NCBI GenBank assembly: GCA_964573185.1
Contig: CAZNIQ010000003.1
Location: 4,595 to 36,594, forward strand
Reading direction: 5' to 3'
From: Candidatus Woesearchaeota archaeon
Lineage (GTDB): Archaea > Nanobdellota > Nanobdellia > Nanobdellales > CAZNIQ01
DNA length: 32,000 nt
The position numbers and the translations under genes were made by a program. Below, in pieces: positions 9,706 through 29,281 of this stretch. The notes beneath the pieces are model-generated. The model worked only from the letters and a program-made list of their open reading frames with translations, searched no databases and was not told the origin of the DNA. The number at the start of each line of letters is the position of its first letter. Position 1 is the first letter of the stretch.

Positions 9706-11197
9706 CATTCATTGGAAAGCTTATGATGTTTTAGCTCACCAAATTGTAGGATTAACAATTGATTTCGGAGAAGCTGATATAGATTTTGTTTGGAGAACTA
9801 TAAAAAGATGTTACCTGTATAAAGATTTAACTTATGAAGAATTCTTGAAATTGCTTGAATTTTTAGATTCTTTAAAGTTAATAAAGTTTGATAAAGAAAA
9901 TAAAAAGATAACAAAAACTAGAAAGGGATTTTTCTATTATTTAGAAAATGTTTCAATGATTCCAGATGAAAAATCATATGATGTAATAGATATTAACACT
10001 AGAACAAAAATAGGTATTTTACATGAGGAATTTGTTGCTAAGCATGGGGAGCCAGGTACAATATTTATTTTAAGAGGTTTGCCTTGGAAAATAGAAAAAA
10101 TAGAAAAAGATAAAATATATGTTTCATTGGAAAAAGATTTTGAAAGTGCTATACCATCTTGGGAAGGAGAATTAATTCCAGTACCTTTCGAGGTTGCACA
10201 ACTAGCTACTGAATTAAAAAAAGAAAATTTAGAGAAATTTGAGGAATTAAAGAATCAAAAATATTGGTTTATACCTGATAAAAACAAAATCTTTATAGAA
10301 TCATACAAAGATTTTATAATAATCCATTCTCCTTTTGGTTCAAAAGTTAATGATACGTTATCAAGGCTATTGGCTTATATCCTTTCAAAAGAATATGGTT
10401 TAGTCGTTGGTTTAAAAACAGACCCTTATAGAATTATTCTGAAAGGAAACATATCTAAAGAAAAAGTGAAAGAAACTTTAGAAAGTTTACCAGAGGATAT
10501 TGAAAATATATTAAAAGAAGCTTTATTTTATATGGATTATTTTTTATGGAGGTTTAAGCATGTAGCTAGAAGATTTGGTATAATATCTAAAAAAGCAGAA
10601 TATTCTAAAGGATTCTTAAGAAGACTAGCTGAAAGTTTAAAAGATACTTTTGTTGTAGAGGAAACTTTCAAAGAAATCTTTACAGAAAAGCTGGATATTG
10701 AGAGAACTAAAGAAATTATAAAGAAAATAAAAGAAGGAGAAATAAAGATTGAAATTATTAATAAAGATAAGCCAAGTCCTTTAGCGATACTTGGATTGGA
10801 AACATACATATCTGATATAATGTTAGCTGATAGATATAAGGAGATTATAAGGTTAGTTAAAGAGAGATTAGAGAACACCGAATTAATATTTGTTTGTATG
10901 AATTGTAAAAGAATATACAAAATGAAAGTAAAAGATTGGAAGCCATTTAAATGCGTATGTGGTTCAGAATATTTTGGAGTTGTGAAAAGAGAGGAAGATA
11001 TCAAAAAAGAAGAAGTTCTTTATGCTACAGCGGATTTATTGAAGCAATGTGGTAAGAAATTCCTTTTAATATATGCAGGCAAAGGAATTAGTTATACTGT
11101 AGCAGCTCATTTATGCTCAAAGAAATACGAAAATGAAGAGCAATTAATTTTAGATATTATTGAGTTTGAGAAAAAGTTTTTGAAAAGAAGATTTTAA
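9680..11197 (+). CDS. Stand-alone Lhr-type helicase C-terminal region (DEAD/H-associated winged-helix + domain 4 + Zn ribbon); no helicase core
   Basis: 505 aa beginning ...KAYDVLAHQIVGL, the start of the Lhr winged-helix/DEAD_assoc region. A C-terminal CMNCKRIY...CVCGSEY zinc ribbon is present. No Walker A or DEAH motifs occur in this ORF or in the ORF upstream. Confidence 0.7.
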   Translation: MHMWLEKPDIHWKAYDVLAHQIVGLTIDFGEADIDFVWRTIKRCYLYKDLTYEEFLKLLEFLDSLKLIKFDKENKKITKTRKGFFYYLENVSMIPDEKSYDVIDINTRTKIGILHEEFVAKHGEPGTIFILRGLPWKIEKIEKDKIYVSLEKDFESAIPSWEGELIPVPFEVAQLATELKKENLEKFEELKNQKYWFIPDKNKIFIESYKDFIIIHSPFGSKVNDTLSRLLAYILSKEYGLVVGLKTDPYRIILKGNISKEKVKETLESLPEDIENILKEALFYMDYFLWRFKHVARRFGIISKKAEYSKGFLRRLAESLKDTFVVEETFKEIFTEKLDIERTKEIIKKIKEGEIKIEIINKDKPSPLAILGLETYISDIMLADRYKEIIRLVKERLENTELIFVCMNCKRIYKMKVKDWKPFKCVCGSEYFGVVKREEDIKKEEVLYATADLLKQCGKKFLLIYAGKGISYTVAAHLCSKKYENEEQLILDIIEFEKKFLKRRF

Positions 11198-12231
11198 GAT
11201 TTTCCAGCCTCTTTCTTTAACTGCTCAAATCTTTCATCAATCATCTTCTTTAACTTATCACCAATGTATTTACCGGGTGAAAATGCATCCACTCTTGCAG
11301 CTATAGCTATTTTAGCTGCCAAAGTTCTTGCCATTCTACCTCTAAGTTTCTTTGGCAACCTTTGAACGTAAGGGTGATTAAATAATACTCCGTGTTTTGG
11401 TGGTGGAGAACCTTTTCTTAAGTGTCTGAACAAAGCTTTTTCTGCACCTAAGACCTGTATTGTAGAAGCTGGTAACATGGCTAAATCTCTTAATGATCCT
11501 GCTAAAGATATTAATCTTGCACCTACTAAAGGACCAGCAACTGCTGTAACATTTGGAGCAACTTTTTCCATCATTTCCTTTATATACTCTATCAACTTCT
11601 TCCTTAATTCATATAGTTCCTTTATTCTTTTAGCATATTCTTTTAACATTTCTATTTCTTTTTCAGATAATTCTCCACCCATCGTTTCTTTTATTCCTAA
11701 CTCTTTCATTATTTCCTCTCTAGTTTTACTCATCGCCAATTCTACCAATTTTTCGTGATCTTCTATTAACATTTCAACTTCTGGAGCATACAAGCCATAC
11801 CACTCTCTAAACCTTTCAATCATCAAGTTAATAATCCTGTTTAAATCGTCTAGAGCATTTATAGCTTGTATTATCAATAAATCAGATGTTACTGACTTTG
11901 ATATTTCTTTTCTAGTTACGGATACCATCAATTCTTGAACTTTGTTCCATTCTTCTCTCTTTACAGTTTTTCTTATAACTTCCATAGCTTTGTTTATCTT
12001 CTTAGGATCATCATCAAACTTCAAATCCAAACCTTCTCTTTTTGGACCTAAATAAATCAATTCATCATATTTCTTTTTCAATTCTTCATAAATTTTCTTC
12101 TCTTTTTCAATTGCTTTTCCCTCTTTTATCTTTAATACTTCATCAACTGTTAAATCTAAAGGTATTCTTTCTTTTAGATTAAAATTTTCATCAAAAACAT
12201 AGATTCCTGTTACATGTGTCAGTACGTACAT
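11194..12231 (-). CDS. nop5: C/D box sRNP core protein Nop5 (Nop56/58)
   Basis: 345 aa. The Nop domain signature is LGAEKALFRHLRKGSPPPKHGVLFNHPYV, followed by ARTLAAKIAIAARVD. Confidence 0.9.
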   Translation of the reverse strand: MYVLTHVTGIYVFDENFNLKERIPLDLTVDEVLKIKEGKAIEKEKKIYEELKKKYDELIYLGPKREGLDLKFDDDPKKINKAMEVIRKTVKREEWNKVQELMVSVTRKEISKSVTSDLLIIQAINALDDLNRIINLMIERFREWYGLYAPEVEMLIEDHEKLVELAMSKTREEIMKELGIKETMGGELSEKEIEMLKEYAKRIKELYELRKKLIEYIKEMMEKVAPNVTAVAGPLVGARLISLAGSLRDLAMLPASTIQVLGAEKALFRHLRKGSPPPKHGVLFNHPYVQRLPKKLRGRMARTLAAKIAIAARVDAFSPGKYIGDKLKKMIDERFEQLKKEAGKS

Positions 12232-12261
12232 TTAAAAAATTAAGAATGGTAATTTAAAAAT

Positions 12262-12426
12262 CTATTTCTTCTCAAGTAACTTCTCTATTTTCTCATCAAT
12301 CTTCAAAATTTTCTCTTCTAATGAAATAATTTTTTCCTCTAAGATCAGAACTTTCTTTAAAGCAACTGCTATGGCTAGAACAGCCCCTAACGTCAAGGCT
12401 ATTAAGATTAAGATTGCGTACTCCAT
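12262..12426 (-). CDS. Small membrane-anchored coiled-coil protein (54 aa), below the ORF-track size cut-off
   Basis: Hand translation gives MEYAILILIALTLGAVLAIAVALKKVLILEEKIISLEEKILKIDEKIEKLLEKK, ending in TAG. It has one TM helix plus a heptad repeat, and it fills the otherwise empty gap between rps10 and nop5. Confidence 0.4.
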   Translation of the reverse strand: MEYAILILIALTLGAVLAIAVALKKVLILEEKIISLEEKILKIDEKIEKLLEKK

Positions 12427-12440
12427 AAAAAAGAATTATT

Positions 12441-12749
12441 TTACCTTTTTATAACTTTCATTTCAACTTGTACCCCCTCTGGTATCGGAATTCTCATTAA
12501 TTCTCTTATAGTTCTTTCATCCATTGCTATATCTATTAATCTCCTATGTATTCTTAGCTGGTATGTGACATAATACTTCTTTCCCCTAGTTCCAGTATTT
12601 GACATTGTTGAAATTCTCAATATTTTTGTTGGTAGTGGTATTGGACCTCTCATTTCTACTCCAGTTTTCTGAACAATCTTCTTTATTTCATCAATTACTT
12701 GATTTAACTTACCAACATCGGTGGAAGTTAATTTAATGCGGATGTACAT
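12441..12749 (-). CDS. rps10: 30S ribosomal protein S10 (uS10)
   Basis: 102 aa with RIKL...GPIPLPT...RIHRRLIDI, at the canonical position downstream of tuf. Confidence 0.95.
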   Translation of the reverse strand: MYIRIKLTSTDVGKLNQVIDEIKKIVQKTGVEMRGPIPLPTKILRISTMSNTGTRGKKYYVTYQLRIHRRLIDIAMDERTIRELMRIPIPEGVQVEMKVIKR

Positions 12750-12765
12750 AAGAAAAAAGAGAAGT

Positions 12766-14091
12766 TTATTTGATTTGTATTTCCTTCTTCTTGGTTACCT
12801 TTATACACATTCCTGCTGCAACAGTTCTTCCCATATCTCTTATAGCAAATCTTGCTAATTGTGGTATAAATGATACTTCTTCAATTACTAAAGGTCTTGT
12901 TGGTTGTACTGTTATTATTGCTGCGTCACCAGGCTTTATGAATTGTGGGTTTTGCTCTGCTACCTTACCTGTCTTAGGATCTAGCTTAGCATCGATAGAT
13001 ACTATCTTACAAGCTACTGCTGCTGTGTGGACGTGGAATACAGGTGTATATCCGGGAGCTATTACAGAAGGGTGCCATAGAACTATTATTTGTGCCTTAA
13101 ATTCTTCTGCAACAGTTGGTAATGGTTCTCCTATTTTACCTATAACATCTCCTCTTGAAATATCTCTCTTTTCAACACCTCTTATGTTTATACCTATGTT
13201 ATCTCCAGCTACAGCTTCTTCTAATGGTTGATGATGCATTTCTATAGATCTTACTTCACCTACAACTCCATTTGGCTTCTTTGAAGGTAATATAATTACT
13301 TTGTCTCCAACTCTTACTCTTCCAGTTTCTACTTTTCCTACAGGTACAGTACCTACACCCTTAATTGAATATACATCTTGTATTGGCATTCTGAATGGCT
13401 TATCTATTGGTCTTGGAGGTTCTTCTAATAAATCAAAAGCTTCATATAATGTCGGTCCATTGTACCATGGCATCTTATCGGATTTTTTCACAATGTTATC
13501 TCCATAGTAGGCAGAAGCAGGTATTATAGCTTTAATAGCTTTTTCAGGGATTCCTAATAGTTTAAATATTTTTAATACCATATTCTTAACTTCTTCAAAT
13601 CTCTTTTGATCATAATTTACTGTGTCCATTTTGTTTATTACAATAATGTATTGATTTATTCCTAGAACTTTTGTTAATATAATATGTTCTCTTCCTTGTC
13701 CTTCCGGTCCTAAAGCAGTCTCAGCTTCACCAGGTTTTGCAGATACAACAAGTACAGCAGCATCTGCTTGCTTTGCGCCAGTAATCATGTTCTTAATGAA
13801 ATCTCTATGTCCAGGAGCATCTATAATTGTAATTTCATATTTCTTTGTTTCAATCTTATAATGAGAAATATCTATTGTTAAACCTCTTTGTCTCTCTTCC
13901 TTTAATCTATCCATGATAAAAGCAAATTCAAACGTTTCTTTTCCCAATTCTTGTGCTAATTTCTTTAATTCTTCCAAGGTTTTCTGGTCAATCAAACCCA
14001 AATCTACTAATAATCTTCCAATTGTAGTTGACTTTCCGTTATCTACGTGCCCTACGAATACTATGTTCAAGTGTGGCTTTTGTCTAGGCAT
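12766..14091 (-). CDS. tuf: Translation elongation factor EF-1 alpha
   Basis: 441 aa with GHVDNGKST, DAPGHRDF and NKMD GTPase motifs. Confidence 0.97.
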   Translation of the reverse strand: MPRQKPHLNIVFVGHVDNGKSTTIGRLLVDLGLIDQKTLEELKKLAQELGKETFEFAFIMDRLKEERQRGLTIDISHYKIETKKYEITIIDAPGHRDFIKNMITGAKQADAAVLVVSAKPGEAETALGPEGQGREHIILTKVLGINQYIIVINKMDTVNYDQKRFEEVKNMVLKIFKLLGIPEKAIKAIIPASAYYGDNIVKKSDKMPWYNGPTLYEAFDLLEEPPRPIDKPFRMPIQDVYSIKGVGTVPVGKVETGRVRVGDKVIILPSKKPNGVVGEVRSIEMHHQPLEEAVAGDNIGINIRGVEKRDISRGDVIGKIGEPLPTVAEEFKAQIIVLWHPSVIAPGYTPVFHVHTAAVACKIVSIDAKLDPKTGKVAEQNPQFIKPGDAAIITVQPTRPLVIEEVSFIPQLARFAIRDMGRTVAAGMCIKVTKKKEIQIK

Positions 14092-14121
14092 GAGAATGAA
14101 TTAAAGAAAAAATTTATAAAG

Positions 14122-16344
14122 TTATACCAATTCTGCGTTTACGTCTAATCCTTTTCTCTTTCTTATTTCTTCAACTACTTTTGGTAATAATTCATCTGGA
14201 AGCTTCTCATAAGTCTGATCTACTAGATACCAGACACCCCTTCCGGATGTAGCAGATCTTAATTCATCTGTAAATCCAAACATTTCCGCTACAGGCACTT
14301 TTGCTTTTATCTTAGTAACATCCTCTTCCATTTGAACATCCAATACCTGACCTCTCCTTTTTGTTACTAAATTTATGGCTTCAGACATATAATCTGGAGG
14401 AACTACTATTTCGATTATCTGTACTGGTTCATATAGAATTATACCTCCTTGTCTCATTGCTTCTCTTATGGCCATTCTAGTAGCTGGAATTATCTGTCCT
14501 GGGCCTCTATGTATAGGATCTTCATGTAATACAGCATCTACTAGCTTTACTTTTAGGCCCATACAAGGTTCTCTTGCTAATGGTCCCGCATCCATTACTG
14601 ATTTGAATCCTTCAATTATCATCTCAATTACTTCTCCTATATGTACTATACCTCTTGTCATATCTAAGAACATGTTATCTCTATAAACATACCTAACTCT
14701 TCTAGCTTCTTCTTTATCCATTCCCAATTCTTCTACAAATACTTTCCAAAGATCCGATCCTTCTTTTATTCTTCCTTCAGGTATTTTTCCTTCTTTAATC
14801 AATTGTCTTAGCTTATGTAATTGTTCTTCAGGTATGGGTTCAACAACAATATATAATTTGTTGTGCTTGTTCGGTGATTTTCCTTCTACTGGTCCTGCAG
14901 GTTTCCTTACAGATTCTCTATAAACAACTATTGGTGGAGATGTTTTTACGGGAATCTTAAAATCGTTCTTAATTCTGTATTCAATGATTTCTAAATGCAA
15001 ATCACCTAAACCAGAAACAAGGATCTCACCAGTTTCTTGATTTATTTCTACCTTGATTGTAGGATCTTCTTTTTCAAGCAACTTCAGTGTTTCAATTAAT
15101 TTGGGCAAATCTTGTGGGTTTTCTGGTTCGAAAGCTTTTGTAACAACAGGATCTAACCAATGCTTCAATTCTTCAAATGGTTCTATTTGTGGAATTTCTT
15201 CAGGATTCTCTATTTTAACAATAGTTTCTCCCGGTCTTATTTCTCTTATACCTGTTAAAGCAATAATGTTTCCAGCTTTTACTTCTTCTACAGGTAATCT
15301 TTGAATACCTTTCCAGACAGCTAGCTGTTGAATTCTTACTTTCTTTTTGGCAGTAACTAAATAGACAAGATCTCCTTTTCTAAGAGTTCCAGACCAAATT
15401 CTTGCAGTAGCTATTAATTGTTTAGAAACCTTATCAATTATAACATTTGTAACGTTTATGACACAAGGACCGTTTGGGTCACAATTTAACATTGCTTGTC
15501 CATACTTTGAATTTATATCTCCTTTCCATATCTTTGGTATTCTATATTTTTGTGCTTCTACGGGGGAAGGTAAATGTCTAACAACCATATCTAGAACTAC
15601 TTTATACACAGGAGCTTTCTTTGCAGCAGCTTCTTTTAATTTCTCTTTATCATTTCCATATTTTTCATAAATCTCAATTATATCTTTAAATGAAACACCT
15701 GTTTTCTGCATGAAAGGCACAGATAAAGCCCAATGATATTTTGCTGAGCCAAAAGCTACAGAGCCGTCTTGAACCCTTACCATCCATTTGTCTTTAAACT
15801 CTGGAGGAGCATATTTTCTGATTAAAGCATTAACATCTTTTACTATTTTAGCAATTCTTTCCATTATTTTTTCGGGAGGCAATTGTAATTCAGTTATGGC
15901 TCTATCAACTTTATTTATAAATAGAACAGGCTTAACATATTCTTTCAAGGCAGTTCTTAACACAGATTCTGTCTGTGGCATTACGCCGTCTACAAAATCT
16001 ACTACAACTATTGCCCCATCAATAGCTCTTGCAGCTCTTGTAACTTGTCCAGAGAACTCAACGTGACCGGGAGTATCTATTAAGTTAATTAGATATTCTT
16101 TTCCTTCGTATTTATGAATCATAGAAACAGCAGCACCGTAAACTGTCATTTCTCTTTGCCTTTCAGTTTCATGCCACCAAGTAAACATCGCCTCACCTGC
16201 TAATTGTTCTGAGAGCATTCCTGCTCCAGCTAGTAGATTATCTGTTAATGTTGTTTTTCCATGATGTATATGTGCTATAATACCGATATTTCTTATTTGC
16301 TCAGGCTTATTCATAAGTTCCAATACTTTCTTCGTAAGATCCAT
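14122..16344 (-). CDS. fusA: Translation elongation factor EF-2
   Basis: 740 aa with AHIHHGKTT (G1), DTPGHVEF and NKVD motifs, and the diphthamide-loop HEDPIHRGPGQIIPA. Confidence 0.97.
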   Translation of the reverse strand: MDLTKKVLELMNKPEQIRNIGIIAHIHHGKTTLTDNLLAGAGMLSEQLAGEAMFTWWHETERQREMTVYGAAVSMIHKYEGKEYLINLIDTPGHVEFSGQVTRAARAIDGAIVVVDFVDGVMPQTESVLRTALKEYVKPVLFINKVDRAITELQLPPEKIMERIAKIVKDVNALIRKYAPPEFKDKWMVRVQDGSVAFGSAKYHWALSVPFMQKTGVSFKDIIEIYEKYGNDKEKLKEAAAKKAPVYKVVLDMVVRHLPSPVEAQKYRIPKIWKGDINSKYGQAMLNCDPNGPCVINVTNVIIDKVSKQLIATARIWSGTLRKGDLVYLVTAKKKVRIQQLAVWKGIQRLPVEEVKAGNIIALTGIREIRPGETIVKIENPEEIPQIEPFEELKHWLDPVVTKAFEPENPQDLPKLIETLKLLEKEDPTIKVEINQETGEILVSGLGDLHLEIIEYRIKNDFKIPVKTSPPIVVYRESVRKPAGPVEGKSPNKHNKLYIVVEPIPEEQLHKLRQLIKEGKIPEGRIKEGSDLWKVFVEELGMDKEEARRVRYVYRDNMFLDMTRGIVHIGEVIEMIIEGFKSVMDAGPLAREPCMGLKVKLVDAVLHEDPIHRGPGQIIPATRMAIREAMRQGGIILYEPVQIIEIVVPPDYMSEAINLVTKRRGQVLDVQMEEDVTKIKAKVPVAEMFGFTDELRSATSGRGVWYLVDQTYEKLPDELLPKVVEEIRKRKGLDVNAELV

Positions 16345-16361
16345 TGTGTAACGTACATAGC

Positions 16362-16373
16362 AAAATTTTTAAA
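16362..16373 (-). promoter_or_regulatory. Putative TATA box for fusA
   Basis: The minus strand reads tttaaaaatttt, centred about 23-24 nt upstream of the ATG at 16344. Confidence 0.4.
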
Positions 16374-16544
16374 TGAAGGGTAAAATTATTTACTACCTAT
16401 TGGTTATTTTATTTTTAAAAATTTTGTTGTTCAGAAAAGCATAATCCTACATAAATTAACCTAGATTATTTTGATCAAATCTTTCAATTTTCCAAAAGAG
16501 GCATTCGAAATATAGAAAATTTTTAATAACTTTTGTAATTTTAG

Positions 16545-16574
16545 AAGGTCGTATAATTTTAGTTATACGACCTT
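16545..16574. repeat. Perfect 12-6-12 inverted repeat, dif-like candidate Xer recombination site
   Basis: AAGGTCGTATAA-TTTTAG-TTATACGACCTT. The arms are exact reverse complements separated by a 6-bp spacer, and the inner arm sequence is CGTATAA/TTATACG. Confidence 0.5.
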
Positions 16575-16597
16575 ACCCAAAATAAATTTATTAAATT

Positions 16598-16617
16598 TTA
16601 CTACTAGTTAGTAGTAA
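16598..16617. promoter_or_regulatory. 9-2-9 palindrome abutting the start codon of ORF 16619 (candidate operator)
   Basis: TTACTACTA-GT-TAGTAGTAA ends 1 nt before the ATG at 16619. It lies downstream of an A/T-rich TATA-like stretch at 16579-16599. Confidence 0.35.
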
Positions 16618-16618
16618 T

Positions 16619-17722
16619 ATGGAAAAATTAGAAAATACTCTTCAAAGGATGGGTTACCAAGTGATAGTTACACAGCGAGCAGGAAAGCATATAAAAGTAC
16701 CCGGACTACCAGAATTAAAAGAACAAGAGGTTATAAAGCTTTATTATAGATTAGAAAATATTGAGGACATAGAAGACGTTGAAGAAAAGCTACCTATTGT
16801 ATCCAAAAGAATTCTAGAAATGATAAATAGGTTAAAACCTTTAATTGACAGTGGCAAAATTAGAGTTAAATATGATGAAAAGGGGAGGTTGCTATCAAAA
16901 ATTAATCTCCTCTTCGCTATATATGTGCCGGGATACCACTTTGTAGTTTACGTTCCTTATGATATAAACATTCTTAAAGAAACTCTGAAAAGGACGATTG
17001 ATGCTCCTTACAGTAAATTGGTAATTAAGTTAGGAAAAACTTTAAAGCATCAAAGAATACCCTTAAAAGAAGAAGATCTAGAAGCAATTATAGATTTAGC
17101 TTTAAATGAGATCAAAAGAGAATTGTCTTCTTTAAAAGAAAACTATAACTATTACAAAAGGTATGTAAACAATATAGAAAGATCTCCAGATTACAAAACG
17201 GAACTAATAAAAATAGCGATAAGAAAAGTGGGAGCTAGTTTAAATAAAGGAAGAGCCTTAGAGTTTGGTAGGCTAGAAGGAGGTAGAGTTTGTTTTACTG
17301 AGGATAATATTTGTGTAGAGCTTTCTAAAAAGGATTATGAACTTGCAAAGAAAAGAGTAAAACAGAATCTTGAAAAGGAGCTTCAAGATATATCTAATAA
17401 AATTACTATATTAGAAAAGTATTATAAAAGGGTAACAACCCTCCTTGCTCAAAGAAAATATTTGGATGCTCTAAGAATGTTAAAAGAGTTATATCAAAGA
17501 TTCTCCTATTTAGGATACTCCCGCTATATAGAATCTATAAAAATAGAGGGTAACAATGCGTACGTAACAAATGAAAAATATGAAGATGTACCAGATTCCT
17601 TAATTGACACCATTTCTATTACAAAGAAAATTTCAGATAGAATTTATATAAGTTACATTCCTTCTAAAGAAGAATGGGCCAAGAAAATAGAAAAATTGTG
17701 TAAAGAGCAATTAAATCTTTAG
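16619..17722 (+). CDS. Hypothetical protein (367 aa), Lys/Glu-rich with predicted coiled-coil segments
   Basis: A long ATG-initiated ORF with no recognised domain. It sits between the dif-like palindrome and xerA. Confidence 0.6.
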   Translation: MEKLENTLQRMGYQVIVTQRAGKHIKVPGLPELKEQEVIKLYYRLENIEDIEDVEEKLPIVSKRILEMINRLKPLIDSGKIRVKYDEKGRLLSKINLLFAIYVPGYHFVVYVPYDINILKETLKRTIDAPYSKLVIKLGKTLKHQRIPLKEEDLEAIIDLALNEIKRELSSLKENYNYYKRYVNNIERSPDYKTELIKIAIRKVGASLNKGRALEFGRLEGGRVCFTEDNICVELSKKDYELAKKRVKQNLEKELQDISNKITILEKYYKRVTTLLAQRKYLDALRMLKELYQRFSYLGYSRYIESIKIEGNNAYVTNEKYEDVPDSLIDTISITKKISDRIYISYIPSKEEWAKKIEKLCKEQLNL

Positions 17723-17792
17723 TATTTTTTGACCGTTTTTGTCCTATTAAAAAGCAAAATTAAAGAAATCTGAAAGTATAAAAAATATATTA

Positions 17793-18605
17793 ATGTTAGA
17801 AGAATTTGCTACTTATTTAGAACTTCAAGGTAGATCTAAGAATACAATAAGAACTTATTGTTGGATAGTTGAAAATTTCTTAAAATATATAAATAAAGAT
17901 CCTTATGCGATTTCTAAAGAAGATATCTTTAGATATCTAGCATACCTTAAGAAAAAATGGAATTATGATTCGAATAGCATAAGATTGGTAGTTATTGCCT
18001 TAAAACAATTTTTTAAATTTATAGGGAGAGAGGACCTATTAATTTATTTGAAATCTCCAAAGATAGATAAAAGGTTACCGAAATTCATTACATATGAAGA
18101 GTTCTTGCGTTTAGTAGGAGCTTGCGATAATCCAAGAGATAAACTTATGATAAAGTTCCTTTTTTATACTGGTGTAAGAGTTTCCGAACTAGTAAATCTT
18201 AAAATAGATGATATTCTCTGGGAAGAAGGATTTGTAAAGGTAAAAGGAAAAGGAGGGAAAGAAAGAATAATACCCCTTCCAGAATCTCTATTAAAAGAAT
18301 TAAAGGAATACGTTGAAACAAGAAAAATTAAGTCCGAATATCTTTTTCCTTCTAAAAGAGGTAGTAAACTCAGTACAAGGCAGGTACAAAGAATTATTAA
18401 CAAAGCTAGGATAAAAGCTGGGATTCGAAAAAAGGTGACACCTCATATTCTAAGACACTCTTTAGCAACTTTTTTATTATCAAAAGGCGTAGATATAAGA
18501 ATTATTCAGGAAATACTTGGACATTCTTCTTTAAGTGTAACGCAAATATATACACACGTAGTACCAAAGCAGCTTAAGGAGATATATAAAAAGGTTTTCG
18601 AATGA
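17793..18605 (+). CDS. xerA: Tyrosine recombinase XerA (XerC/D family)
   Basis: 270 aa. The N-terminal core-binding domain starts EEFATYLELQGRSKNTIRTY. Catalytic residues are present in YTGVRVSEL (R), KGKGGKERIIPL (K), HILRHSLAT (H-x-x-R) and GHSSLSVTQIYTHV (H...Y). Confidence 0.9.
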   Translation: MLEEFATYLELQGRSKNTIRTYCWIVENFLKYINKDPYAISKEDIFRYLAYLKKKWNYDSNSIRLVVIALKQFFKFIGREDLLIYLKSPKIDKRLPKFITYEEFLRLVGACDNPRDKLMIKFLFYTGVRVSELVNLKIDDILWEEGFVKVKGKGGKERIIPLPESLLKELKEYVETRKIKSEYLFPSKRGSKLSTRQVQRIINKARIKAGIRKKVTPHILRHSLATFLLSKGVDIRIIQEILGHSSLSVTQIYTHVVPKQLKEIYKKVFE

Positions 18606-18617
18606 CTTTAAAAATTT
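18606..18617 (+). promoter_or_regulatory. Putative TATA box for the rpoH-led RNA polymerase operon
   Basis: ctttaaaaattt is centred about 24-25 nt upstream of the rpoH ATG at 18636. Confidence 0.4.
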
Positions 18618-18635
18618 AACCTTAAACAGGTACTA

Positions 18636-18875
18636 ATGCCTAAAAAGGTTGATATCACTAAGCACATTTTAGTTCCAAAACATGAAAAACTTTCTGAAGA
18701 AGAGGCTAAGAAATTATTAGAACAACTTGGCATTTCAAAATTACAATTGCCCAGAATAAAAAAGAATGATCCAGCGATAAAACACTTAAATCCTAAACCA
18801 GGAGATATTATTAAAATTATTAGAAAGAGTCCTACGGGTGGGGAGTATGTTTATTATAGAGTTGTTGTAGAATGA
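18636..18875 (+). CDS. rpoH: DNA-directed RNA polymerase subunit H (Rpo5)
   Basis: 79 aa with [19 protein letters not shown]...[12 protein letters not shown]...[23 protein letters not shown]. Confidence 0.95.
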
Positions 18876-20359
18876 AGCCATACAGAATTCTTACAAAGGC
18901 ATACTATAGAGAATACTCTCCAGTAAGATCTCAAATAGAGTCATTTAATTATTTCGTAGAGTACGAAATGCAAAAGATTATTGATGAAATAGGAGAGGTA
19001 GAAATGACAATAACGCCACCAGGAGTTAAAGAAGTTAAAGTAAAATTTGGCAAAGTATCTATAGGAAAACCAGATGTTGTAGAGCCAGATGGGATAAGAA
19101 GAATAATTTATCCTCAAGAAGCAAGGATTAGGAATCTAACATACTCCTCTTCAGTTTATCTTGAATACGAAATGTACTATGATGATAACCTGAGAGAGAA
19201 AGGGATTGTAGAAATAGGGAGGATTCCTATTATGGTTAGATCGAAGTATTGTAATCTTTATGGTTTATCTGAAGAAGAATTAATCAAATTAGGTGAGGAT
19301 CCTACAGATCCAGGTGGTTACTTTATAATCAATGGTACTGAAAGAGTTGTCGTAATGACAGAAGAGTTATTTACAAATAGGTTATATGTTGAGGAAGAGA
19401 AATCGGGTTCTGCAAAATACGTTGGAAGAATCTTTTCTGAAGCAGGTATCCTAAACGTTCCGCATAAAATAGAATTAATGAAAGATGGTTTATTCATGAT
19501 TTCATTTGGAAAAATAAAAAGAACGCCTGTTTTCGTTATCTTAAAGGCCTTAGGAATGGAAACCGACCAAGAAATAGCCCAAGCAATAGATCCTGAGAGA
19601 CTCTGGGATGAGGTTTTAGTAAATCTATATGAATATCAAGAAATAAAAAATGCTGATGAAGCAGTAAAGTGGTTAGCAAATCATTGGCACATTCCTGGAC
19701 CTGAAGAATTAAGAAAGGAGAGAGTATATGAAATTTTAGATAAATATTTATTGCCACATATAGGACAATCTCCTGCAGATAGATATGCAAAAGCTTGGAA
19801 TCTCTGTAAATATATAAAGAAGATGTTATTAGTAGCTTATGGTGAATTGCCAGAAGATGATAAGGATCATTATATGAATAAACAAATAAGATTAGCAGGT
19901 GATTTGCTTTCAGAGATGTTTAGAGTAGTATTTAAACTTTTGATAAATGATGCAAAATACCAATATGAAAGATTAGTAAAGAGAGGAAAAATTCCAACTT
20001 TCCGATCTGTCATAAGATCAAAAATATTTACGGAAAGATTTGAAACTGCAATGGGTACTGGACAATGGACAAGAAAAAGAGTAGGTGTTTCTCAAATGCT
20101 TGATAGAATGAATAAACTTGCTACGATATCTCATCTAACAAGAATTTGGTCTCCTTTAGAGGCAGAAGGAGAAATGTATGAAATACGTATGCTTCACGGT
20201 ACTCATTGGGGAAGACTTTGTCCTATAGAAACTCCAGAAGGAAAGAACGTAGGTTTAAGAAAGAATCTAGCTTTATTAGCAAGAATTTCACCTGAGGTTC
20301 CTGAAGCGGAAGTTTTAAATAAGTTAAAGGAACTCGGATTAGAACCTTACAAAAAATGA
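18872..20359 (+). CDS. rpoB2: DNA-directed RNA polymerase subunit B'' (N-terminal half of split subunit B)
   Basis: 495 aa. It has conserved Rpb2 N-terminal blocks ([21 protein letters not shown]). It ends with an ATGA overlap into B'. Confidence 0.95.
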
Positions 20360-22170
20360 AGGCGGAAGTTTACTTAAATGATAAATTTGTAGGCTATGTA
20401 GAAAATCCAGAGCAGTTCGTAAGAGCTATTAGGGAAGCTAGAAGGAGGGGCCAATTACCTCCAACAGTAAATGTATATTATGATGAAGAGTCCAATAGAG
20501 TATTCGTTTATTGTAATAAAGGAAGATTATTAAGACCATTGATTGTTGTTGAAAATGGAAAACCTAAGTTAACAAAGGAACATCTTGAGAAATTAGTAAA
20601 AGGAGAATTAACTTGGGAAGATCTTGAAAAGCAAGGAATAATAGAGTGGTTGGATCCTGCTGAAGAAGAAAATGTTTATGTTGCTTTAGACGAGAAAGAA
20701 TTAACACCGGAACATACCCATTTAGAGATTGGTCCTCAAACTTTCTTTAGCATAGTTACTTCTTTAGCTCCATATGCGAATTATAATCAGACTGTAAGAT
20801 TAAACAGAGGAATAAGACCTCAAAAACAAGCGTTATCTATCTACACATATAATTTCTTATTACGTTTTGATTCAGATGTATCTATTTTGTATTATCCACA
20901 GGAACCATTAGTAAGAACTTTCACTCATGAGATTTTCAGAGATTATGATATCATTGGTCAAAATGTTGTAGTTGCTGTAATGGTTGGTCACGGATATAAC
21001 ATGGAAGATGCTTTAGTATTTAATAAAGGTTCTATAGATAGAGGTCTATTCAGAGGAGTATTCTTTAGACCTTATGAAGCTGAAGAATTAAAGTATCCTG
21101 GTGGTCTAAAAGATGAAATCAGAATTCCAGATCCAGATGTTAGGAATTATAAGGGTTCTGAAGCTTATAGGAATTTAGAAGAGGATGGAATAGTTTATCC
21201 GGAAGCAGAAGTAAAAGGAAAAGATGTTTTAGTTGGAAGAGTTTCTCCACCTAGATTTACAGAGATAGCAGCTTTTGAAACATTGACAGTTACAGGCTTA
21301 ACCTTAAGAGATACATCCGTTACTGTGAGATCTGAAGAAAAGGGTATTGTTGATGCAGTGTTTATAACTGAAACAAAAGAAGGAAACAAATTAGTAAAAG
21401 TTAGAGTTAGAGATTTAAGAATTCCAGAGTTAGGTGATAAATTCTGTACAAGATCTGGACAGAAAGGAGTAATAGGTTTAATCTTACCAGAGTCAGATAT
21501 GCCTTTTACAGCTTCTGGAGTTAAACCAGATATAATATTTAACCCAATGGGATTGCCTTCAAGACAGACTGTTGGTTATCTATTAGAAGCTTTAGCTGGA
21601 AAAGTAGGAGCATACTCTGGAAGATACATTGACGGTACTCCATGGGATGAAGAGCCGGAAGAAGCATTGAGAAAAGAATTATTAAAATTAGGTTTTAGAG
21701 AAGATGGAACTGAAACTATGTATGATCCTATATCTGGTGAAGAATTCAAAGTGAAAATATTCGTTGGAAACATCTATTATATGAGATTGAAACATATGGC
21801 TGCAAATAAGTTGCATGCAAGAGCTAGAGGTCCATATACTTTGCTAACAAGACAGCCTACTGAAGGTAAAGCAAAAGAAGGAGGTTTGAGGTTAGGAGAA
21901 ATGGAAAAGGATGTTATATTAGCTTATGGAGCACCAATACTATTAAAGGAGAGATTTTCTTCTGATAAAACTATAATTTATGTTTGTGAAAAATGTGGTG
22001 CAATGGCTATTGATGATACTATTAGAAAAAGAAAATACTGTCCTGTATGTGGAGAAACTGAAAGAATAAAGCCCGTAGAGGTTTCTTATGCATTTAAGTT
22101 ATTCCTAGACGAACTGATCTCTTTGGGCATCTGGCCAAGGTTAAGGGTTAAACCGAAGTACGAAGAATAA
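20356..22170 (+). CDS. rpoB1: DNA-directed RNA polymerase subunit B' (C-terminal half of split subunit B)
   Basis: 604 aa with GYNMEDA, GDKFCTRSGQKG, LRLGEMEKD and the C-terminal Zn ribbon CEKCG...CPVCG. Confidence 0.95.
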   Translation: MKAEVYLNDKFVGYVENPEQFVRAIREARRRGQLPPTVNVYYDEESNRVFVYCNKGRLLRPLIVVENGKPKLTKEHLEKLVKGELTWEDLEKQGIIEWLDPAEEENVYVALDEKELTPEHTHLEIGPQTFFSIVTSLAPYANYNQTVRLNRGIRPQKQALSIYTYNFLLRFDSDVSILYYPQEPLVRTFTHEIFRDYDIIGQNVVVAVMVGHGYNMEDALVFNKGSIDRGLFRGVFFRPYEAEELKYPGGLKDEIRIPDPDVRNYKGSEAYRNLEEDGIVYPEAEVKGKDVLVGRVSPPRFTEIAAFETLTVTGLTLRDTSVTVRSEEKGIVDAVFITETKEGNKLVKVRVRDLRIPELGDKFCTRSGQKGVIGLILPESDMPFTASGVKPDIIFNPMGLPSRQTVGYLLEALAGKVGAYSGRYIDGTPWDEEPEEALRKELLKLGFREDGTETMYDPISGEEFKVKIFVGNIYYMRLKHMAANKLHARARGPYTLLTRQPTEGKAKEGGLRLGEMEKDVILAYGAPILLKERFSSDKTIIYVCEKCGAMAIDDTIRKRKYCPVCGETERIKPVEVSYAFKLFLDELISLGIWPRLRVKPKYEE

Positions 22171-22199
22171 ATTTAAACTTTACTTTTTAAACTTTCATA

Positions 22200-24815
22200 A
22201 TGACCACTCCTTTTAAGCTTTCTGAAATTACCTTTAGATTGGTAGATCCTGAAACAATAAGAAATTTTGCTGTAGTTAAGATTGTAACTCCAGAACTTTA
22301 TGATAAAGATGGATTTCCAGTAGAAGGGGGCTTGATGGATCCCAGAATGGGTGTTATAGATCCAGGATTAAGATGTAGGACTTGTGGTAAAAGATTTGGA
22401 GAGTGTCCCGGACATTTTGGATATATAGAATTAGCAAGACCTGTAATACACGTTTTGTATGCTGAATTAATTTATGATATCTTAAGAATAGTTTGTCATA
22501 ATTGTGGAAGGATAAAATTACCTGAAGAAAAAATAAAAAGATACCTCAAAAGATTTGAATATTTAAAGAAAGTATACGGTCCAGTTACGGCTTTTCAACA
22601 GTTAAGAAAGAAATTGTTAGAAGAAACAAAGAACGTTACAAAGTGTCCTCATTGTGGATACGAAAATCCAAAAGTAGAATTCCAAAAACCATATAAATTC
22701 TTTATTTATGAAAAAGAAGGAAAGAGAAGATTAACTCCCATTGAAATAAGAGAAATATTAGAGAAGATACCTGATGATCATGCTAGGGCTTTAGGTTTTG
22801 GAAAAGACGTTAGACCAGAATGGATGGTATTAACTGTTTTACCAGTTCCTCCTCCAACAGTAAGACCCTCTATAATTTTGGAAACAGGAGAGAGAGCAGA
22901 AGATGATTTAACACATAAATTAGCAGATATAGTTAGAACAAATCTTAAATTGCAAGAAGCAATAGCTACGGGTGCTCCTGAAATTATAGTAGAAGACTTA
23001 TGGGATTTGTTACAATACCACGTTGCCACGTACTTTTATAATAATCTCCCAAATGTTCCAAAAGCTAGACACAGATCTGGTAGACCTTTGAAATCTCTTG
23101 TTGAAAGAATATCTGGAAAAGAGGGAAGGTTAAGATACAATCTTTTGGGTAAGAGAGTAGATTTCTCTGCAAGAGCAGTAATATCTCCTGATCCAAGAAT
23201 AGAAATAGATGAGGTAGGAGTTCCTATAGAAGTTGCAATGGAATTAACCGTTCCGGAAAGAGTTACTGAATGGAATATAGAGTGGTTAAGGAAATTGGTT
23301 TTGAATGGTCCAAATAAGTATCCTGGTGCGAATTATGTTATAAGGCCTGATGGAAAGAGGTTCAGAATTACTGATGAAAACAAAGAAATGTTAGCAAACG
23401 AACTACAACCTGGATGGATCGTTGAAAGACATCTAATGGATGGAGATATTGTACTATTCAATAGATATCCCTCTGTACACAGGATGAATATGATGGCTCA
23501 TAGAGTTAGGGTTTTACCGGGTAGGACATTTAGAATAAATCCCTTTATCTGTACTCCATATTACGCTGATTTTGATGGAGATGAAATGAATATACATGTT
23601 CCACAGACCGAAGAAGCTAGAACAGAAGCGAGATTATTGATGAATCCAAGATATCATATTGTCTCCCCAAGATATGGTTTAGCAATAGTAGGATTAATAC
23701 AGGATGCTATATCCGGATTATATCTCCTAACACAAGATGATACGAAATTGTCTTTTGATGAAGCAGCACAATTGTTATATGATGCTGGAATACCTTTGGA
23801 TAAGTTCAAAAGATTAATGGAAAAAGCTAAGAAAGAGGGAAGAGATTATTTAACTGGAAAAGAAGTATTTTCATGTGTTTTACCGGATGATCTTAACTTT
23901 GAATATGAAGCAAAAGGAATAAGATTTGTAATTGAAAATGGAATGTTAAAAGAAGGAGTTGTAACTAAAGATATTGTAGGTGCAGAAAAGGGACATTTGA
24001 TAAGATATGTTTATGAGAAGTACGGACCGGACTTTACAATCAAGTTTATACACCAATTAGGCTTACTAGGTATTGAATATCAATGGAAACATGGATTGTC
24101 TTTAAGCTTATCTGAATGGGATCTACCTAAAGAAGCTGAAGAGGAGATAAAGAGGATAAAAGAGGAAGCTAGAAAAGAAATAGAGAAGCTAATTGAGAAA
24201 TACAGAAAAGGAGAAATAACACCTATGCCAGGTAAAACCGTTAAAGAAACATTTGAAACAATGGTTTTGCAAGTATTAAATAAAGTAAGAGATGAAGTAG
24301 GAAAAATTGTTGAAAAATATCTAAAGAAAAATACAAATACGTTTATAATGTTAAAATCTGGAGCTAGAGGTAATATATTAAATATAGCGCAGATGGTTGG
24401 TGTTGTAGGACAACAAGCTTTAAGAGGACAAAGAATAGAGTTTGGATATAAAGATAGAAACTTACCAATATTTAAGAAAGGAGATCTTTCACCTGAAGCA
24501 AAAGGTTGGATAGATGTTGGATACAGACATGGATTAAGACCTTGGGAATTCTTCTTCCAGTCTATGGTAGGAAGAGATGCTTTAATGGATACTGCCGTAA
24601 GAACAGCTTATTCCGGATATCTATATAGAAGATTGGTTAACGCAACATATGATGTAAAAGTTTGGTATGATGGTACTGTTAGAGACTCATGGAACAGATT
24701 GATACAATTCTTGTACGGAGAAGATGGATTGGATGTTCAGAAAACAGAAAAAGGAAAATTAAATATTGATAGAATAATAAAGGAAGTCTTAAAAGAATAT
24801 CAACAAAAGAAATAA
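22200..24815 (+). CDS. rpoA1: DNA-directed RNA polymerase subunit A'
   Basis: 871 aa with the N-terminal Zn motif CRTCGKRFGECPGHFG and the metal-A motif YADFDGDEMN (canonical NADFDGDEMN). Confidence 0.95.
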   Translation: MTTPFKLSEITFRLVDPETIRNFAVVKIVTPELYDKDGFPVEGGLMDPRMGVIDPGLRCRTCGKRFGECPGHFGYIELARPVIHVLYAELIYDILRIVCHNCGRIKLPEEKIKRYLKRFEYLKKVYGPVTAFQQLRKKLLEETKNVTKCPHCGYENPKVEFQKPYKFFIYEKEGKRRLTPIEIREILEKIPDDHARALGFGKDVRPEWMVLTVLPVPPPTVRPSIILETGERAEDDLTHKLADIVRTNLKLQEAIATGAPEIIVEDLWDLLQYHVATYFYNNLPNVPKARHRSGRPLKSLVERISGKEGRLRYNLLGKRVDFSARAVISPDPRIEIDEVGVPIEVAMELTVPERVTEWNIEWLRKLVLNGPNKYPGANYVIRPDGKRFRITDENKEMLANELQPGWIVERHLMDGDIVLFNRYPSVHRMNMMAHRVRVLPGRTFRINPFICTPYYADFDGDEMNIHVPQTEEARTEARLLMNPRYHIVSPRYGLAIVGLIQDAISGLYLLTQDDTKLSFDEAAQLLYDAGIPLDKFKRLMEKAKKEGRDYLTGKEVFSCVLPDDLNFEYEAKGIRFVIENGMLKEGVVTKDIVGAEKGHLIRYVYEKYGPDFTIKFIHQLGLLGIEYQWKHGLSLSLSEWDLPKEAEEEIKRIKEEARKEIEKLIEKYRKGEITPMPGKTVKETFETMVLQVLNKVRDEVGKIVEKYLKKNTNTFIMLKSGARGNILNIAQMVGVVGQQALRGQRIEFGYKDRNLPIFKKGDLSPEAKGWIDVGYRHGLRPWEFFFQSMVGRDALMDTAVRTAYSGYLYRRLVNATYDVKVWYDGTVRDSWNRLIQFLYGEDGLDVQKTEKGKLNIDRIIKEVLKEYQQKK

Positions 24816-24816
24816 A

Positions 24817-25944
24817 ATGTTACCGAAATCTATACAAGAAGAATTGGAAAAGAAATTAAAGGAACTTAATGTTCCTGAAGAAGTAAAAGAAGAGATTAGA
24901 AGAAGGGTTATAGAATTATATGAAAAATCTAAGATAGAACCCGGGGAAGCTGTTGGCATAGTTGCTGCACAATCCATTGGTGAACCTTCAACACAGACAA
25001 TTCTTAGGGCTTTCCACTGGGTCGGTATGGCAGAATTCCAGGTCACTTTAGGTTTGCCAAGATTAATAGAAATCTTAGATGCAAAGAAAAAGCCCAAATT
25101 CCCAATGATGCGAATATACTTAAAGGAGCCTTATAAGAATGATCCAGAAAAAATAAAAGAAGTTGCTTTAAAGATTAAAGAGCTAAGATTAGAAGAGTTG
25201 ATGAGAGAAGTAACGATAAATCTTTTAGATAATACTATTGAAGTATATTTAGATCCAGAGAAATTAAATAAAAATAAAATAACTTTTGAGGAGGTAGTTA
25301 AAGGAATTAGGAAAAGTTTTAGATCAGGTTCTATAAAAGATTATTCAGAAAAAGAGTTAAAAATAGTTATTAAGCCTAGAAAGGAAAAACCTACATTAAA
25401 GGATTTATATCAATTAAAGCAAAAAGTAAAAGATATTGTTGTGAGAGGAATTAAAGGAATAAAAGACGTTTTACCTATTTATGATGATAAAGAAGGAGAA
25501 TATGTTATTTTAACTTATGGTACAAATCTAAAGGAAGTTTTGAAATTAGAAGAAGTTGATGAAACAAGAACTATATCTAATGATATACACGAAGTTGCGA
25601 AGGTTTTAGGAATTGAAGCTGCAAGGAACTTGATTATACAAGAAATAAAAAGAGTTTTGGAAGAACAAGGTTTAGAAGTAGATATTAGACATATAATGCT
25701 GTTTGCGGATCTTATGACTTGGTCTGGAACTGTAAAAGGAGTAACAAGATATGGTATTGTTAAGGATAAACCTTCCGTATTATCCAGAGCAGCATTCGAG
25801 ACTCCTATAAAGCATTTCTTAATAGCTTCAATAATTGAAGAAAAGGATGAGATGAAAGGAGTATTAGAAAATGTAATGGCAAATCAAATAGCACCTTTAG
25901 GAACAGGTATTGTAAAGCTTGCTTGGAAAGAAGAGAATAAATAA
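24817..25944 (+). CDS. rpoA2: DNA-directed RNA polymerase subunit A''
   Basis: 375 aa with GEAVGIVAAQSIGEPSTQ and VTLGLPRLIEILDA. Confidence 0.95.
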   Translation: MLPKSIQEELEKKLKELNVPEEVKEEIRRRVIELYEKSKIEPGEAVGIVAAQSIGEPSTQTILRAFHWVGMAEFQVTLGLPRLIEILDAKKKPKFPMMRIYLKEPYKNDPEKIKEVALKIKELRLEELMREVTINLLDNTIEVYLDPEKLNKNKITFEEVVKGIRKSFRSGSIKDYSEKELKIVIKPRKEKPTLKDLYQLKQKVKDIVVRGIKGIKDVLPIYDDKEGEYVILTYGTNLKEVLKLEEVDETRTISNDIHEVAKVLGIEAARNLIIQEIKRVLEEQGLEVDIRHIMLFADLMTWSGTVKGVTRYGIVKDKPSVLSRAAFETPIKHFLIASIIEEKDEMKGVLENVMANQIAPLGTGIVKLAWKEENK

Positions 25945-25964
25945 CTTTTCTTTTTATATTTCTC

Positions 25965-26237
25965 ATGGTCGATCAAAAATTCATTGAAGAGTTAAGAAGA
26001 TTGGTTAAGGAAAAGAAAGCAATTGTGGGATCAAATAGAACAATAAAGCTGTTGAAATTAGGAAAAATAGCAAAAGTTGTAATGGCAAGAAACGTTCCAG
26101 AAGATATTAAAAAAGACATAGAGTATTATGCTAAGCTAGCTAACGCAGAAGTGGTCCAATTAGAAGTAGATAACGTTGAATTAGGAGCCATGGTTGGAAA
26201 ACCGTTTAAAGTAACTGTTATAGGGATACCCAAATAA
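25965..26237 (+). CDS. rpl30e: 50S ribosomal protein L30e
   Basis: 90 aa of the L7Ae/L30e fold family, with DIEYYAKLANAEV...VELGAMVGKPF. It sits at the canonical position after rpoA2. Confidence 0.85.
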   Translation: MVDQKFIEELRRLVKEKKAIVGSNRTIKLLKLGKIAKVVMARNVPEDIKKDIEYYAKLANAEVVQLEVDNVELGAMVGKPFKVTVIGIPK

Positions 26238-26268
26238 TTTTTAAATAAAATTTTATATTCAATTAACA

Positions 26269-26697
26269 ATGCCTAATGGTCTCTTTGCTGGGAGGAAGTT
26301 AAGAAAAAACAGGAAGAAATTCAGATGGGCCAAAAAAGAATATAGAAGAAGGATGCTTAGATTAAAAGAAAAATATGATCCATTAGAAGGTGCCCCCATG
26401 GCTTCTGGTATTGTATTAGAGAAAGTAACTGTTGAAAGAAGACAGCCAAACTCCGGATTGATTAAATGTGTTAAAGTTCAATTAAAGAAAAATGGAAAGA
26501 TAGTAACAGCTTTTGCACCTGGTGATAAGGCTATAAAATATATAGATGAACACGATGAAGTTTTAATTGTAGGTATTGGAGGAAGAAAAGGAAGATCCTT
26601 AGGTGATATTCCCGGAGTAAGATATAAAGTTGTACTTGTTAATGGGCAGCCATTAGAATTGTTAAGAAAAGGAAAGATAGAAAAAGCAAGAAGATAA
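26269..26697 (+). CDS. rps12: 30S ribosomal protein S12 (uS12)
   Basis: 142 aa with [13 protein letters not shown] and [11 protein letters not shown]. Confidence 0.95.
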
Positions 26698-27170: not shown

Positions 27171-27683
27171 ATGATAACAATATATATTTACAGATTTGCA
27201 GAAGCTTGGATAGGGATAGCTATTAGAAACAACAAAATTGTTGCAATATCCTTTACTTTTGAAGATAAAGAAAAATTAATTAAAAATATTGAAAGAATTC
27301 TAAAAATAAGAAAAATAAAAGATGAAATAGAAATCAAAGAAGAGAAACACCCATGGCTTTCCTTGATTTATAAAATATTTAAAGGAAAAGAAAATCCACA
27401 AAAGATATATCCGTATTTGGATGTTAATATTTTGTCTGATTACGAAAAAGTCGTTTTAAGGAAACTTTGGGAAATACCTTATGGTTCTACAAGAACTTAT
27501 GAGGAAATAGCTTTAGAATTGAAGATGCACCCTAGGTTGATCGGAAGAATTCTTTCCAGGAATCCTTTTGAAATAGTTTTTCCATGTCACAGAGTCGTTT
27601 CTAAAAGAGGGATAGGCGGATTTAGAGGGGGTTACGATGACGATAAGAAAAAGATTTTAGAGTTTGAGAAGAAGAATAAATAA
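27171..27683 (+). CDS. ogt: Methylated-DNA--protein-cysteine methyltransferase (Ogt/MGMT)
   Basis: 170 aa with the active-site PCHRVV and the HTH region TYEEIALELKMHPRLIGRILSRNP. Confidence 0.9.
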   Translation: MITIYIYRFAEAWIGIAIRNNKIVAISFTFEDKEKLIKNIERILKIRKIKDEIEIKEEKHPWLSLIYKIFKGKENPQKIYPYLDVNILSDYEKVVLRKLWEIPYGSTRTYEEIALELKMHPRLIGRILSRNPFEIVFPCHRVVSKRGIGGFRGGYDDDKKKILEFEKKNK

Positions 27684-29184: not shown

Positions 29185-29213
29185 TTAAAACCTTGGATGG
29201 AAATGTTTATAAA

Positions 29214-29272: not shown

Positions 29273-29281
29273 GTTAGAAAA

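Follow-up and report, generated by a model that had tools for sequence, protein, structure and literature searches.

The palindrome and the recombinase gene

The DNA analyzed here, which we call the window, is a stretch of 32,000 nucleotides from a member of the Nanoarchaeota that is known only from metagenomes and whose xerA locus was recovered from three of them. Two divergent transcription units are divided by a non-coding gap of 274 bp (16345-16618), and direct reading of this gap reveals a perfect 12-6-12 inverted repeat, AAGGTCGTATAA-TTTTAG-TTATACGACCTT, at 16545-16574. We propose, with a probability of roughly 0.8, that the XerA recombinase encoded 1.2 kb downstream uses this palindrome as its dif-type core site, and that site and gene together would form a XerA/dif module in a nanoarchaeal genome. 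Because linked xerA and dif have been reported before in archaea, the kind of arrangement is already known. The elements concerned are as follows.

16545-16574, no strand: predicted dif-type XerA recombination site (inverted repeat with conserved arms and a core common to 113 sites elsewhere)
16546-16556: left arm, 11 bp, with pairing that reaches 16545
16557-16562: asymmetric 6-bp spacer TTTTAG
16563-16573: right arm, with pairing that reaches 16574
17793-18605, plus strand: xerA, a single archaeal Xer-type tyrosine recombinase of 270 amino acids (Pfam, NCBIfam and structure alignments)

An earlier reading made from the sequence only had described a palindrome with exactly complementary arms and a 6-bp center about 1.2 kb upstream of xerA, and both statements hold. 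The repeat resolves into AAGGTCGTATAA (16545-16556), TTTTAG (16557-16562) and TTATACGACCT followed by T (16563-16574), its arms are 100% complementary, and its end lies 1,218 nt from the xerA start codon. That the repeat sits in the largest intergenic gap is debatable, since the gap at 28948-29293, upstream of a tRNA-Arg, measures 346 bp; this second gap loses its length if an 88-amino-acid minus-strand open reading frame (ORF) within it is real. The stretch from the gap to xerA is not empty, as an ORF of 367 amino acids (16619-17722) lies between them. The likeness to the inner arms of Escherichia coli dif stands at six of seven positions on the left, whereas on the right TTATACG agrees with TTATGTT at four positions of seven rather than the five that had been counted.

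No other perfect inverted repeat of the window combines arms of at least 12 bp with a spacer of 3-10 bp. Under a first-order Markov model of the window, chance would yield 0.0025 perfect 12-6-12 and 0.03 perfect 11-6-11 repeats per 32 kb. The 30-mer finds no second match in the window even with three mismatches allowed, none of 100 shuffles of the sequence contained any match to it, and neither a second full site nor a half-site with at most one mismatch was found in the window. In the JGI sample that holds the organism, the known contig alone carries a copy. Measured against the features described for archaeal dif sites (PMC2958812; PMC11840125), the palindrome displays two 11-bp inverted arms, a 6-bp spacer and a TAA-N6-TTA core, all in non-coding DNA.

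The product of the gene at 17793-18605 contains a Pfam Phage_integrase domain (2e-49) and N-terminal SAM-like domains, and scores 308.9 bits against the NCBIfam equivalog model NF040815 recomb_XerA_Arch, the cutoff of which is 220. It aligns over its full length to Pyrococcus abyssi XerA (4A8E; E=8.6e-72, residues 2-268) and likewise matches Thermoplasma acidophilum XerA (5HXY; E=1.1e-54). Aligned to these two proteins, the catalytic R, K, HxxR, H and Y blocks are kept (GvRvSEL, GKGgKeR, tPHilRHs, lGHs and qiYthv), leaving the R-K-H-R-H/W-Y set intact. Identity amounts to about 52% with the Pyrococcus protein and 57-61% with those of Nanopusillus, Nanobsidianus and Nanobdella. The NCBIfam XerS model gives 105 bits against a cutoff of 267, and the XerH structure 5JJV is a distant match (E=2e-25) confined to the catalytic domain, indicating that the protein is neither a XerS nor a XerH. 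On these comparisons, the gene is a true, chromosomal archaeal XerA orthologue, as the earlier reading had annotated it, and we infer that its product would act on the palindrome.

Conservation of the arms in relatives and across archaea

The two nearest XerA lineages that we found (79% and 72% identical) both have the motif where synteny predicts it, upstream of xerA. In the closer one (L004/L005, GCA_054017035.1), the site reads ATGTCGTATAA-GTTTCA-TTATACGACAC and lies 203 nt from the start of the divergent EF-2 gene and 68 nt from the GTG codon aligned to the xerA start of the window, with no gene between site and xerA. The order EF-2 (minus), site, xerA (plus) is thus kept in L004 despite different genes downstream of xerA. 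In the other lineage (L013), the site AGGTCGTTTAA-TGTCGG-TTATACGACCT is followed by an unrelated ORF of 114 amino acids and then by xerA. A strain variant of the window, L001, has the spacer TTTCAG and one change at an outer arm position. When these four intergenic regions are aligned, the sole continuous invariant block is GTCGT-TAA...TTATACGAC. The spacers (TTTTAG, TTTCAG, GTTTCA and TGTCGG) vary and are always asymmetric, and the flanks vary freely as well. Constant arms combined with a free spacer and free flanks are the signature of a tyrosine-recombinase core site.

Comparison of the window with L001 adds detail at the strain level. The two differ at 39 positions in 11.5 kb (99.7% identity), and 16 of these 39 differences fall within 16529-16578 (497-547 in L001). 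They affect the left flank, the spacer and the outer right arm and leave the inner 10 bp of both arms untouched. Smaller clusters of differences occur at 19525-19567 and 27262-27419. This clustering suggests patchy recombination between strains that is strongest at the site.

To place the arms in a wider context, we scanned one genome per species (185,579 species, 596 Gb; a collection that excludes the source genome of the window and the L004 genome) for the core GTCGTWTAA-N6-TTATACGAC, that is GTCGTATAA-N6-TTATACGAC. The scan returned 113 stretches, compared with about nine perfect palindromes expected at uniform base composition. Archaea account for only about 5% of the species in the collection, and 58 of the 113 stretches are labelled archaeal. 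These derive from 57 assemblies with one site each, the apparent duplicate being one site at the ends of two contigs (L027 and L107) of the Thermoplasmata metagenome-assembled genome (MAG) JAKIWG01. Both contigs end 9-22 bp past the palindrome, indicating that this assembly breaks at the site and calling for caution with copy counts in draft genomes. The archaeal carriers comprise marine group II/Poseidoniales, Thermoplasmata, Methanoperedens, Methanosarcinales, ANME-1, Methanomicrobia and Nanoarchaeota, together with one Halobacteria MAG and a MAG labelled Thermoproteota (L086). Arm positions 10 and 11 are also biased (A in 65%, T in 56%), which yields the 11-bp consensus A-T-GTCGTATAA, and spacers are lineage-specific; CTACCA, for example, occurs in 16 archaeal sites, mostly of marine group II. 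A search of JGI metagenomes for the window-type arm returned 16 stretches.

A XerA-like gene lies within 1.5 kb of the core in 29 loci, with the site 5' of the gene in 28 of them. The distance from site to start codon is 7-83 nt in 12 of the 14 loci measured; in the remaining two, L074 and L079, the predicted start codon lies at or upstream of the site. All six archaeal neighbor genes tested pass the XerA_Arch cutoff (240-280 bits), and the core stands directly 5' of a gene passing it in at least six archaeal lineages. No xerA is found nearby in 22 of the 27 archaeal loci for which at least 1.2 kb is available on both sides. Hence the site can occur beside xerA or apart from it.

Two further groups of sequences carry the same core. 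Several bacterial Xer-like genes have a GTCGTATAA-N6-TTATACGAC site, or one with a single mismatch, up to about 700 bp upstream; they belong to Clostridia, Peptoniphilaceae, Tissierellia and Oscillospiraceae (L036, L053, L074, L079, L121), to Desulfosporosinus (L089, L119, L122) and to Patescibacteria (L017, L019, L026, L088, L090). None of the four bacterial genes L036, L053, L088 and L119 passes the NCBIfam cutoff for XerC, XerD, XerS or XerA. These loci may be unrecognized single-recombinase xer/dif modules that have the arm sequence of the archaeal ones. The perfect core palindrome also occurs on fourteen IMG/VR contigs (L145-L158), with no XerA-like gene in the stretches fetched; these may be elements exploiting the Xer system of their host, or host DNA that has been taken for viral.

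Upstream of xerA in more distant Nanoarchaeota, we noticed an element of a different kind. Nanopusillus acidilobi, Nanobdella aerobiophila and AP031373 carry directly before xerA a conserved stretch of about 110 nt with a G+C content above that of its surroundings (L006 9838-9950; L007 9841-9955; L014 5840-5955; L015 825-940). Its stem, CCCTACC...GGTAGGG, shows two or three compensatory pair changes. Rfam contains no match to the element, which the window lacks and which may be a small RNA or have a regulatory role.

Neighboring genes and competing explanations

Three further features of the window bear on how the site is read.

14122-16344, minus strand: aEF-2, the conserved divergent left neighbor, starting 200 nt from the site (Pfam EF-G/EF-2 domains)
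16579-16597, plus strand: candidate archaeal promoter of the orphan ORF, an A-rich transcription factor B recognition element (BRE) and the TATA-like box TTTATTAAA (read from the sequence)
16619-17722, plus strand: orphan ORF of 367 amino acids that separates the site from xerA, assigned to no Pfam or NCBIfam family

To the left of the gap, aEF-2 is followed on the minus strand by aEF-1alpha, S10 and Nop5. To the right, the plus strand carries the 367-amino-acid ORF, xerA, rpoH, a split rpoB, rpoA', rpoA'', L30e and S12. We found neither orc1/cdc6 nor mobile-element genes in the window, the remainder of which consists of ordinary housekeeping genes. The archaeal cluster rpoH-rpoB-rpoA-L30e-NusA-S12-S7-EF2-EF1a-S10 is broken in the window (11194-26697): EF2-EF1a-S10-Nop5 is inverted and stands opposite rpoH, with the site and xerA between them, and S12 is followed by neither S7 nor NusA. 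By contrast, L011 keeps rpoA''-L30e-S12-S7-EF2, with xerA convergent on EF-2, and L004 has another order downstream of xerA. These differing orders imply that the breakpoints of rearrangement are concentrated at xerA and the site.

The orphan ORF has one sub-threshold Pfam match and no NCBIfam match. A word-indexed search of 5.8 billion proteins returned only the ORF itself, and an exhaustive HMMER search of 1.8 billion representatives found one remote homologue (33% identity), which lies in another genome and beside neither xerA nor a dif-like site. Upstream of this homologue (L159, about 5690-5860) stands a sequence resembling an intron-containing tRNA (GCGGGGGTAGCCAAGTGG ... GGTTCGAATCCCACCCCCCGCA), for which ARAGORN makes no call. 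The AlphaFold2 model of the orphan protein has a mean predicted local distance difference test score of 65, and Foldseek found nothing below E=0.1 for it in the PDB. The candidate BRE/TATA starts 5 bp past the right arm of the site, with the TATA-like element centered about 26 nt before the ATG at 16619. A perfect 7-2-7 palindrome, ACTACTA-GT-TAGTAGT (16600-16615), stands directly before this ATG and is unchanged in L001; it could function as an operator or as a leader hairpin. The 3' end of the ORF has T-rich, terminator-like runs, and xerA has an AT-rich upstream region of its own. A role as Xer accessory factor was considered for the orphan product and rejected because the ORF is missing from L004. 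It is lineage-specific cargo and would probably have no part in the recombination system.

What lies between site and xerA differs among the three lineages, namely nothing in L004, the 114-amino-acid ORF in L013 and the orphan ORF in the window. The few nucleotides to the right of the site might thus be a spot of XerA-dependent gene capture in these reduced nanoarchaeal genomes, an archaeal counterpart of integrative mobile elements exploiting Xer (IMEX) or of dif modules, an idea that we hold to be unlikely. The last ~50 nt before xerA can be aligned between the window and L004, so the orphan ORF is a clean insertion of a single gene immediately to the right of the site. In L013, the full site (349-378) and a perfect 12-nt half-site, AAGGTCGTATAA (870-881), bracket the 114-amino-acid ORF, and the half-site ends 3 nt before the xerA ATG; this arrangement looks like the trace left by a Xer-mediated insertion, or like an additional binding site for XerA. 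The strain differences also fit capture, the flanks of the site varying more than any other 50 bp between the two otherwise 99.7%-identical strains, as does the occurrence of the core on 14 contigs classed as viral. Against it stands the lack of a second site bounding the orphan ORF in the window.

Several observations weigh against assigning the palindrome as dif. The count of one copy covers the window and one metagenome. Cumulative GC skew has a local minimum at the site, and divergent, highly expressed operons together with such a minimum resemble an origin more than a terminus. Over these 32-36 kb, however, the skew follows the coding strand, and we rejected it as a test for a terminus for that reason. 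In Sulfolobus, moreover, dif is situated away from the zones of fork fusion. The P. abyssi dif site, ATTGGATATAA-TCGGCC-TTATATCTAAA, which XerA binds and recombines in vitro (PMC2958812), agrees with the site of the window at 11 of 22 arm positions and differs in the outer six of each arm (GTCG in the window, GGAT/ATCT in P. abyssi). Lastly, among Nanoarchaeota with XerA 57-61% identical to that of the window, no such site occurs within 6-10 kb of xerA in Nanopusillus, Nanobdella, AP031373 and two vent MAGs; the linkage is therefore clade-specific.

Three other explanations were weighed. The palindrome could be a transcriptional operator and nothing else, bound by XerA or by another dimeric regulator of the orphan ORF/xerA unit. 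The site does end just before the candidate promoter of the orphan ORF, in other archaea it overlaps or abuts the xerA promoter at 7-83 nt from the start codon, and L013 has its extra perfect half-site immediately before the xerA ATG. Yet the archaeal loci without a nearby XerA gene (22/27) place the site independently of a xerA promoter, as is the case for dif. In the window, moreover, a whole gene with a T-rich, terminator-like end separates the site from xerA, and an 11-6-11 geometry with a free asymmetric spacer describes a recombination core. We therefore regard a purely regulatory palindrome as quite improbable; a role as operator and a role as dif are compatible and not mutually exclusive.

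Slightly less credible still is the idea that the site serves mainly as the attachment site of a mobile element or gene cassette, used by an integrase of the element or by Xer-dependent integration. The content between site and xerA varies among L004, L013 and the window, the L013 cargo has a full site on one side and a half-site on the other, an AbiEii toxin gene adjoins xerA in L004 and L006, and the IMG/VR contigs have the same core. The recombinase, however, passes the model for chromosomal XerA, and xerA has operons for ribosomal proteins and RNA polymerase as its neighbors in every nanoarchaeal genome examined. The window contains neither a second site or half-site (at most one mismatch) nor other mobile-element genes, and integration at dif would presuppose a dif. 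That the palindrome is a product of chance or a structural feature such as a hairpin, terminator or origin element is very hard to credit and in effect refuted: the window is AT-rich with many imperfect palindromes and the site marks a local switch of strand and skew, but 0.0025 such repeats are expected by chance, the arms are kept across lineages while the flanks diverge, no T-run follows the repeat, no repeated copies resembling origin recognition boxes accompany it, orc1/cdc6 is absent from the window, and the arms are associated with XerA genes across phyla. An origin of replication was rejected on the same grounds, as the window lacks both orc1/cdc6 and repeated boxes.

The dif-type site thus remains our preferred reading. 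The sequence-only reading had proposed the chromosome's dif site or a Xer-dependent recombination site, and each of its refutation tests that was run favored a Xer site.

Proposed mechanism and relation to known Xer/dif systems

By homology with the XerA proteins of P. abyssi and T. acidophilum, we can outline how the module would work. Each 11-bp arm (A-G-GTCGTATAA and its complement) would be bound by one XerA monomer, and two sites on a chromosome dimer would synapse. Cleavage by the active-site tyrosines would follow at either edge of the 6-bp spacer, and the strands would be exchanged via a Holliday junction, yielding two monomers from the dimer. With arms of perfect symmetry, the site would owe its direction to the asymmetric spacer TTTTAG alone, and this direction would ensure that two directly repeated copies undergo resolution and not inversion. 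In the window, one orphan gene, equipped with a candidate promoter and a T-rich terminator of its own, has been inserted between site and xerA. As a speculation, XerA binding at the site might damp local transcription or affect the promoter of the orphan ORF, since the site ends 5 bp before its candidate BRE/TATA. Direct autoregulation of xerA from the site in the window is unlikely because of the T-rich runs at the end of the orphan ORF and the separate AT-rich region upstream of xerA; it is plausible where the site lies 7-30 nt from the xerA start codon.

The closest parallels are the archaeal XerA/dif systems, exemplified by P. abyssi Pab0255 with its 28-bp dif, T. acidophilum XerA with dif2, and Thermococcus kodakarensis dif, which XerA binds in chromatin immunoprecipitation sequencing. 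With P. abyssi, the window has in common a single XerA, the same domains and catalytic blocks, and the 11-6-11 build. The inner arms TATAA/TTATA are identical in the two sites, and so is the TAA-N6-TTA core, which Yamaura et al. describe as the most conserved feature of archaeal dif (PMC11840125). Thermococcales dif does not lie beside xerA and is found between convergent genes (PMC2958812; PMC11840125), whereas the site in the window has perfectly symmetric arms, is linked to xerA and lies between divergent operons. Archaeal dif is known in both linked and unlinked form (PMC5357621; PMC2958812; PMC11840125). The 2017 review by Castillo et al. mentions an 'individual xerA/dif module' in some archaea (PMC5357621), and Yamaura et al. 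report a dif-like element upstream of the xerA operon for Haloferax volcanii and Halobacterium salinarum (PMC11840125).

Like these linked modules, the window has its site on the 5' side of xerA. The Halobacteria MAG (L045), Methanoperedens, Methanosarcinales, Methanomicrobia and Thermoplasmatota have the same 9-bp arm core at 7-83 nt from the XerA start; the window differs from them by the unrelated 1.1-kb gene between site and xerA. Identity of the core with the published haloarchaeal dif sites is suggested by the L045 MAG.

Beyond archaea, the module resembles XerS/difSL of Lactococcus and Streptococcus and XerH/difH of Helicobacter and Campylobacter, in which one recombinase acts at a linked upstream site. 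The analogy that the earlier reading drew with these systems is apt, and linked xerA/dif modules had already been reported in archaea as well (PMC5357621; PMC11840125). The differences are that the recombinase of the window belongs to neither family and that difSL is atypical, with a length of 31 bp. Moreover, the XerS and XerH systems depend on FtsK, whereas archaea are without FtsK (PMC5357621).

A looser likeness links the site to IMEX elements and to the dif modules of Acinetobacter: different single genes adjoin it in different lineages, and the L013 cargo lies between a full site and a half-site. Unlike in those systems, the cargo in the window is not bracketed by two Xer sites, and we saw no circular form or excision junction. 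We know of no archaeal IMEX.

Our literature search found neither a published dif site from Nanoarchaeota nor a report of this arm sequence. The understanding of Xer/dif systems as such is unchanged by the finding, which is sound but expected. For the Nanoarchaeota, a group of uncultured, host-dependent organisms with tiny genomes, the palindrome provides a candidate dif that would help in closing and orienting genomes and in testing XerA in vitro. Since the arm consensus A-T-GTCGTATAA-N6 is common to marine group II, Thermoplasmata, Methanoperedens, Methanosarcinales, ANME-1, a Halobacteria MAG and Nanoarchaeota, it may also serve as a simple key in the search for dif in many uncultured archaea.

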